From Escherichia coli (GTDB lineage Bacteria > Pseudomonadota > Gammaproteobacteria > Enterobacterales > Enterobacteriaceae), in the NCBI RefSeq assembly GCF_003334255.1, contig NZ_QOWU01000240.1: a stretch of 438 nt of DNA. One strand, written 5' to 3'. Position 1 is the first letter of the stretch, and the number at the start of each line of letters is the position of its first letter. The notes beneath the pieces were generated by a model. The model was given only the letters and a program-made list of their open reading frames with translations, had not been told where the DNA came from and ran no database searches. Of the stretch, positions 1 through 438 are shown piece after piece. A program made the position numbers and the translations under genes.

Positions 1-114
1 CCCACCACGGATATCCGTAAGGACAGATGCAGCAAGTGCATGCGCGGGTGTGAACTGCGCAGGAATGTCGGCAATTTTGGCGGTTTCCTTTCCATCAATA
101 AACTTTCGCAGTAA
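1..114 (+). CDS. L: Minor tail protein L (gpL-like), 3' end; 5'-partial, continues upstream of the window
   Basis: Frame 1 is open from base 1 to TAA at 112..114 and translates to PTTDIRKDRCSKCMRGCELRRNVGNFGGFLSINKLSQ*. It lies immediately upstream of, and on the same strand as, an unmistakable gpK homolog, matching the conserved lambdoid gene order L then K. It contains the Cys-rich motif expected for the gpL C-terminal domain. Not in the ORF track because it lacks a start codon inside the window. Confidence 0.78.
   Translation, partial: PTTDIRKDRCSKCMRGCELRRNVGNFGGFLSINKLSQ
28..51 (+). other. Cys-rich C-x2-C-x3-C motif in the gpL C-terminal domain (putative Fe-S cluster ligands)
   Basis: tgc(28..30) agc aag tgc(37..39) atg cgc ggg tgt(49..51) encodes CSKCMRGC. 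Lambda gpL-family proteins are reported to coordinate an iron-sulfur cluster through conserved cysteines in the C-terminal domain. Three Cys are visible here; a fourth ligand would lie upstream, outside the window. Confidence 0.55.
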
Positions 115-124
115 ATCCTGTTTT

Positions 125-438
125 ATGACACAGACTGAATCAGCGATTCTGGCGCATGCCCGGCGGTGTGCGCCTGCGGAGTCGTGCGGCTTCGTGATAA
201 GCACGCCGGAGGGGGAGCGGTATATCCCTTGTGTGAATATTTCCGCAGAGCCGGAGGCGTATTTTCGTATCGCACCGGAAGACTGGCTGCGGGCAGAGAT
301 GCAGGGGGAGATTGTGGCACTGGTCCACAGTCATCCCGGTGGTCTGCCCTGGCTGAGCGAGGCTGACCGGCGGCTGCAGATAAAAAGCGCACTGCCCTGG
401 TGGCTGGTCAGCCGGGGTGACATTCACAAATTCCGCTG
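125..438 (+). CDS. K: Tail (tip) assembly protein K (gpK-like), N-terminal JAB/MPN+ domain; 3'-partial, continues downstream of the window
   Basis: ATG at 125..127, frame 2, with no stop through the window end (104 full codons plus 2 nt). Translation: MTQTESAILAHARRCAPAESCGFVISTPEGERYIPCVNISAEPEAYFRIAPEDWLRAEMQGEIVALVHSHPGGLPWLSEADRRLQIKSALPWWLVSRGDIHKFR. I recognise this as a close homolog of phage lambda gpK from its N-terminus (MTQTESAILAHARRCAP…) and from the HSHPGGLPWLSEADRRL JAMM motif. Not in the ORF track because there is no stop codon in the window. Confidence 0.93.
   Translation, partial: MTQTESAILAHARRCAPAESCGFVISTPEGERYIPCVNISAEPEAYFRIAPEDWLRAEMQGEIVALVHSHPGGLPWLSEADRRLQIKSALPWWLVSRGDIHKFR
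179..190 (+). other. JAMM/MPN+ N-terminal catalytic motif E-x-C-G (Glu19-Ser-Cys-Gly22 of K)
   Basis: Codons gag(179..181) tcg tgc ggc(188..190) encode ESCG, followed by F-V. This matches the conserved E-x-x-G-[LF] element that supplies the catalytic Glu in MPN+/JAB domains. The assignment of the Glu is by motif position, not by structure. Confidence 0.6.
326..367 (+). other. JAMM zinc-binding motif H-x-H-x7-S-x2-D (His68, His70, Ser78, Asp81 of K)
   Basis: cac(326..328) agt cat(332..334) … agc(356..358) gag gct gac(365..367) encodes HSHPGGLPWLSEAD. Spacing is exactly H-x-H-x7-S-x2-D, the canonical JAMM/MPN+ metalloisopeptidase signature. Confidence 0.85.

Follow-up and report, generated by a model that had tools for sequence, protein, structure and literature searches.

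The gene L-K boundary of a lambda-like Escherichia coli prophage: a K start without a Shine-Dalgarno sequence close behind the L stop codon

Positions 100-130 of the 438-nucleotide stretch of Escherichia coli DNA analysed here (the window) are the boundary between genes L and K in the tail-tip module of a lambda-like prophage. The start codon of K can be assigned with high confidence to the ATG at position 125, and it is preceded by no recognisable Shine-Dalgarno (SD) sequence. Termination-reinitiation coupling at L is the best-supported mechanism for translation of K, and we infer that it is, on balance, the main source of K initiation. A serious rival, nevertheless, is SD-less initiation on open RNA that is independent of L.

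The window is 100% identical to part of a lambda-like prophage that E. coli STEC2018-553 carries in its chromosome (NZ_CP075665, 352264-352701), and copies that are 95-99% identical occur in many Stx and lambdoid phages and in some 1,500 further E. coli records. In the STEC2018-553 prophage (locus L099), PGAP annotates a 'phage minor tail protein L' at 15416-16114, ending at window position 114, and a 247-aa 'C40 family peptidase', which is K, starting at 16125, equivalent to window position 125. The gene order is H-M-(ompC-like porin)-L-K-I-J, and L and K are neighbours in the late operon of every record that we looked at. The ompC-like porin gene of this prophage, a moron at 14056-15219 of the same locus, splits the usual M-L overlap. 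In frame 1 the C-terminus of L reads ...FLSINKLSQ before the stop codon, and in frame 2 the N-terminus of K from ATG125 reads MTQTESAILAHARRCAPAES... The original prediction had placed only 10 nt between the L stop and the K ATG, and both the sequence and the translations bear this out. The features of the window are as follows.

1 to 114, plus strand: 3′ end of L, its last 37 codons (...CSKCMRGCELRRNVGNFGGFLSINKLSQ) and stop codon, from the frame 1 translation and PGAP.
50 to 79, plus strand: in-frame candidates for an earlier K start (GTG50, ATG65 and TTG77, frame 2), which overlap L and are judged to be unused.
100 to 118, plus strand: invariant 19-nt block AAACTTTCGCAGTAAATCC, made up of the last four L codons, the stop codon and the first four spacer bases.
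112 to 114, plus strand: L stop codon TAA, from sequence and translation.
115 to 124, plus strand: intergenic spacer ATCCTGTTTT of 10 nt without an SD element, from sequence and duplex energy.
125 to 127, plus strand: K start codon ATG, invariant in close relatives and the start chosen by PGAP.
125 to 438, plus strand: 5′ part of K, residues 1-104, JAB/MPN+ (JAMM) metalloprotease domain, from Pfam and alignment.
179 to 181, 326 to 334, 356 to 358 and 365 to 367, plus strand: JAMM motif codons for E19, H68-S69-H70, S78 and D81, respectively.

It had also been predicted that no SD-like element precedes K, and the pairing energies agree. As a measure we took the best duplex formed by the 22 nt upstream of an annotated start with the 3′ end of 16S rRNA (ACCUCCUUA). 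For K this duplex has an energy of +0.7 kcal/mol, the weakest among the 22 annotated starts of the late operon, 17 of which pair at -5.8 kcal/mol or stronger. Random 22-nt windows drawn from the same operon (n=3,372) have a median of -3.8 kcal/mol, and 2.1% of them are as poor as K. The purine-rich 16S match about 5-13 nt upstream of the start that defines canonical SD-led initiation is absent at K, which this comparison shows to be the sole late gene of the STEC2018-553 prophage without a ribosome-binding motif.

The K start of lambda itself likewise lacks an SD. Resequenced lambda (PV340536), which reads L stop, ATCCC, K ATG, shares with the window the two genes, the block at 100-118 and the MTQTES start of K, and its junction likewise gives a duplex of +0.7 kcal/mol, although its spacer is 5 nt long and has no U-run, compared with 10 nt in the window. 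Among 56 unique close relatives, drawn from IMG/VR loci and phage records, spacers are 10 nt (ATCCCGGTTT or ATCCTGTTTT), 5 nt (ATCCC or ATCCA) or 4 nt (ATCC) in length, so that the +10 nt gap of the window shrinks to +4 or +5 nt in the shorter variants. The commonest spacer, ATCCCGGTTT, pairs with the anti-SD at -2.4 kcal/mol.

Further afield, we compared 15 distant K lineages from phages of Mannheimia, Burkholderia, Pseudomonas, Agrobacterium, Serratia, Pectobacterium and Klebsiella and from HK97/N15-like, T1-like and Dhillonvirus coliphages. A tight junction, with -4 to +10 nt from the L stop to the K start, is kept in 13 of the 15, at identities as low as about 30%; the exceptions are phi1026b, with a gap of +49 nt and a terminator-like hairpin, and one Klebsiella phage in which K does not adjoin L. 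Anti-SD pairing in these lineages ranges from -3.8 to -9.3 kcal/mol, and most have a recognisable SD match, such as AAGGAG, GGAGG or AGGAG, within the last part of L, so the lack of an SD belongs to the lambda-like clade and not to the K family. The distant homologues, including those of mEpX2 (HK97/N15-like), herni and phSE-2 (T1-like), Teewinot (Dhillonvirus) and the Pseudomonas, Mannheimia and Agrobacterium phages, are thus like the window in their tight junction and in the alignment position of the K N-terminus, but differ in that most carry an SD match whereas the lambda-like clade has none. Locus L022 (IMGVR_UViG_3300029234_000121), a degraded prophage with an insertion at the end of L, was left out of the counts. 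It had the appearance of a K with a different L end; this is actually an IS66-family insertion at the end of L, and the element (629-1500, with TnpB-like ORFs on the minus strand) lies directly upstream of an intact K, with its boundary between ...ACGCTTACG and TAAATCCCGGTTTATG.

The RNA around the K start is predicted to be open. Local partition-function folding across the whole operon gives an opening energy of 5.1 kcal/mol for the region from -15 to +14 of K; the operon median is 10.9 kcal/mol, which places this region at the 4.4th percentile, and the 61-nt fold around the start, at -8 kcal/mol, is no better than those of shuffled sequences (z +0.27). The 25 nt upstream of the ATG are 68% A+T compared with 42% for the window, and the GC content falls to 35-40% over 81-140. 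We found no promoter-like site in the window and no terminator at the L-K junction, the sole terminator-like pattern match in the window lying at 240-257, inside K, and an Rfam search of the window returned no family near its gathering score. L and K are therefore two co-oriented ORFs with neither a promoter nor a terminator between them, and no stable structure is predicted after the L stop. Further into K, the minimum-free-energy fold contains a stable 10-bp hairpin (GGCGCAUGCC-CGGC-GGUGUGCGCC) at 151-174, over K codons 10-17 and 27-50 nt past the AUG; lambda differs there at several bases.

These properties would suit translation by termination-reinitiation (TeRe). SD-less coupling has been documented in E. 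coli (PMC12548453), as has its strong dependence on a short distance (PMC10666635; review PMC12548453), and a preprint reports that structures after the stop codon are depleted where reinitiation operates (bioRxiv 10.1101/2020.02.10.941153), with which the unstructured region after the L stop agrees. With no SD, no post-stop structure and a documented precedent for SD-less coupling, termination-reinitiation is the route that the evidence supports best. Described TeRe pairs (Huber et al. 2019, 2023; J Bacteriol 2025 review PMC12548453) resemble L-K in being co-oriented in one operon, in a weak or absent downstream ribosome-binding site and in the lack of stable post-stop structure, a likeness drawn from sequence and predicted structure, and may also resemble it in their separation by a few nucleotides. 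Typical pairs overlap by 4 or 1 nt, however, whereas the L-K gap is +10 nt (4-5 nt in lambda). The invariance of the K ATG among the 56 relatives, in all of which the spacer stays at or below 10 nt (4, 5 or 10), also points towards coupling. E. coli pairs with gaps of +10 nt usually have an SD of their own in the gap (PMC12548453), and in E. coli reporters reinitiation fell by 5-70% at +2 nt, was variable at short distances including +14 nt, and was largely lost at +38 nt (PMC10666635). Given that the drop in the reporters is already present at +2 nt, a 10-nt gap is not optimal for reinitiation.

A ribosome whose P site holds the final sense codon of L (109-111) would, by the established footprint size, protect the mRNA to roughly +15 nt, that is to about position 124, which puts the K AUG at the front edge of the ribosome as it terminates. 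We propose a mechanism in which ribosomes halted at the L UAA (112-114), covering the mRNA as far as the K AUG or thereabouts, would release gpL, and some of them would stay on the open RNA, shift about 10 nt downstream and reinitiate at AUG125, probably with some SD-independent de novo initiation adding to the total. K would then be made in small amounts linked to the translation of L, as would suit a non-structural tail-assembly protein.

The open, AU-rich start region that would favour such a shift would also permit SD-less initiation independent of L, which counts against coupling. Under this alternative K would be initiated de novo by free 30S subunits, aided by S1, on AU-rich open RNA, and the proximity of the two genes would reflect genome compaction; we consider it possible, though rather doubtful as the principal route. 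Besides the accessibility and base composition described above, which place the start region in the most accessible 4.4% of the operon, it draws support from the spacer, whose length is unfixed, so that no precise stop-start geometry is conserved, and from the tight junctions of all the neighbouring late genes. Tight gene spacing is general in phage late operons, and proximity by itself is thus weak evidence for coupling. In classical lambda genetics, L and K amber mutants complement each other both in vivo and in vitro, which would speak against full polarity of L nonsense mutations on K and against a complete dependence of K on L.

Several observations weigh against independent initiation as the whole explanation. 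A ribosome at the L stop occupies the upstream RNA that a 30S subunit needs, so a free 30S cannot gain access to the K start region during L termination and full independence is impossible while L is being translated. The U-run beside the ATG is missing in the relatives with 5-nt spacers, lambda included, leaving no conserved U-rich element of the S1 type, and SD-less internal starts are generally weak in E. coli. SD-independent initiation occurs at unstructured start regions, as Scharff et al. reportedly described in PLoS Genet in 2011, and at AU-rich, S1-dependent leaders. The K start is like those cases in having no SD, a high A+U content and little predicted structure, but they are usually 5′ leaders or come from SD-poor organisms, whereas the K start is internal to a polycistronic mRNA and sits right behind a terminating ribosome.

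One stretch of the junction stands out in the alignment of the close relatives. Over 438 columns and 56 unique sequences, the longest invariant run is the 19 nt at 100-118, the next longest being 11 nt, and the four synonymous sites of L within it (102, 105, 108 and 111) are all invariant. As the sequences are closely related, this invariance is suggestive only. It could be taken to mean that AAACUUUCGCAGUAAAUCC (100-118) is a dedicated element for SD-independent reinitiation specific to the lambda-like clade, a reading that we consider improbable. If it were true, the block might act by holding the ribosome on the mRNA after termination or by pairing with rRNA at sites other than the anti-SD, the ratio of K to L synthesis would be kept fixed and low at any spacer length (4-10 nt), and L-K would offer a natural test of the disputed scanning model for reinitiation in bacteria. 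As a separate observation, the epsilon enhancer of T7 gene 10 (UUAACUUUAA; motif sequence from PMC9590205) matches 99-108 at seven of ten positions, and AACTTT at 101-106, within the block, matches the epsilon core; a match of this quality is expected about once per window by chance, and the candidate was dropped.

Coupling by RNA unfolding, in which a hairpin with L sequence would mask the K start until L-translating ribosomes open it, is one of the two classical coupling models (PMC12548453), and a weak 4-bp stem (CUGU/ACAG, 118-121/130-133) can indeed enclose the AUG. We think it most unlikely here: the folds and opening energies around the start gave no inhibitory hairpin that would sequester it, the 61-nt fold being at the level of shuffled sequences and the opening energy among the lowest in the operon, and the spacer bases of the small stem vary among relatives.

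Equally hard to sustain is the idea that K truly starts at GTG50, ATG65 or TTG77 and so has an N-terminal extension whose codons overlap L. Frame 2 is free of stop codons from base 2 to 124, as had been noted along with GTG at 50-52 and ATG at 65-67 (a TTG at 77-79 can be added to these), and it stays open to base 2 and beyond in the relatives with 10-nt spacers; the RefSeq record of BP-4795 annotates a 293-aa K that starts inside L. The original prediction nevertheless judged the upstream starts less likely and proposed comparing start-site conservation across K homologues, a comparison that supports its choice. ATG125 is invariant in the 56 unique close relatives, whereas ATG65 is altered in 16 of them. 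The 10- and 5-nt spacers differ in length by a number not divisible by three, so that the two variants could not share an N-terminal extension into L, and every relative with a 5-nt spacer, among them lambda, has a TAA in the K frame 18-21 nt before the ATG and no in-frame start. Within the L part, 21 of the 34 variable sites are third positions of L codons and hence second positions in frame 2, implying that frame 2 is free of coding constraint there. The AGGA at 61-64 abuts ATG65 directly, with zero spacing. The Pfam JAB model begins at residue 3 of the protein from ATG125, and the K N-termini of the 15 distant lineages (27-44% identity) align within about seven residues of M125, giving an N-terminus that is aligned across 16 lineages. 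The longer K annotations in BP-4795, mEp010 and Sabo (RefSeq or PHANOTATE-style records) are longest-ORF calls.

The original prediction also rested its choice of start on a match between the MTQTES N-terminus and the gpK homologue. This holds for lambdoid K proteins and for resequenced lambda but fails for the reference gpK, NP_040598, which has 199 aa and begins MSPEDW because one base is missing inside K in NC_001416/J02459. For the same reason NC_001416 annotates K 148 nt past the L stop. At the affected site the lambda reference (J02459/NC_001416) reads GAGGC-TATTTCC, where PV340536, lambda imm21 and close relatives read GAGGCGTATTTCC; the region lies at 1134-1300 of locus L003 (NC_001416 13000-16500), corresponding to about 255-262 of the window. 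LC730321, DE3, HK629 and HK630 align to a 311-nt reference query over 312 nt, the length expected from an insertion of 1 nt. The missing G splits lambda K into a 76-aa ORF that begins MTQTES and the annotated 199-aa gpK (MSPEDW...), which lacks 48 N-terminal residues and with them the catalytic Glu of the JAMM motif. Where a record has the G, lambda K is 247 aa long and its start codon follows the L stop at a distance of 5 nt. The missing G probably reflects either a mistake in the sequence of 1982 or a mutation confined to that stock; a literature search for a published note on a K frameshift in the lambda reference found nothing relevant. Inside K, at 250-257 of the window, there is a strong SD-like GGAGG, which in lambda stands before the ATG of the MSPEDW ORF of 199 aa; the lambda imm21 record (locus L101, 873-877) annotates it as a ribosome-binding site. 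The window has the codon ATC where lambda has this ATG, and hence no internal start in K.

Downstream of the window, PGAP starts gene I of the STEC2018-553 prophage at a GTG (L099, 16865) that overlaps the K stop and has no SD. The Pfam family Lambda_tail_I, however, spans residues 15-97 of a longer ORF (L099, 16766-17446) from an ATG at 16766 with an SD of -8.5 kcal/mol, so that the true start of I is probably in another frame 103 nt into K, where the classical lambda annotation also has it, and the PGAP start is probably misplaced. The idea of a chain of SD-less coupled genes from L to K to I was dropped, since I most likely starts at the SD-bearing ATG.

The protein whose supply is at issue has the expected organisation of lambda gpK (TAPK). 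In the full 247-aa K, Pfam places Prok-JAB (PF14464) at residues 3-105 (E 9.7e-16; model positions 3-113 of 114) and NLPC_P60 at residues 111-224, the JAB plus NlpC/P60 architecture described for lambda gpK by Iyer et al. 2006 (PMC1779556). In an alignment of K from 16 lineages E19, H68, S69, H70 and D81 are invariant and S78 is nearly so, and K thus combines an intact JAB/MPN+ motif (E...HxH-x7-S-xx-D) with a following NlpC/P60 domain at a position between the L and I homologues. The suggestion that coupling at L helps to set the relative stoichiometry of tail-tip assembly proteins is weak. Mass spectrometry of lambda virions did not detect gpK (PMC10721106), which is needed for tail assembly (PMC10721106; PMC12617516) and is no structural component. 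Coupling would consequently provide a low, L-linked supply of a non-virion protein with two peptidase domains and not a structural ratio. A low output of K, which is predicted by reinitiation and by independent initiation alike, fits a tail-assembly protein that is not found in the virion.

In conclusion, the L-K junction is an ordinary example of a known phenomenon, a tight SD-less junction at a well-annotated gene boundary of a phage late operon, and its significance is small beyond annotation and lambda housekeeping. The start of K is now fixed for lambda-like prophages, where K is drawn out into L or cut short in several public records, and the widely used 199-aa gpK is without the N-terminal third of the JAB domain, which matters for anyone modelling or expressing gpK. 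If coupling is confirmed, the natural 4-, 5- and 10-nt spacers would make L-K a convenient system for studying SD-less reinitiation.
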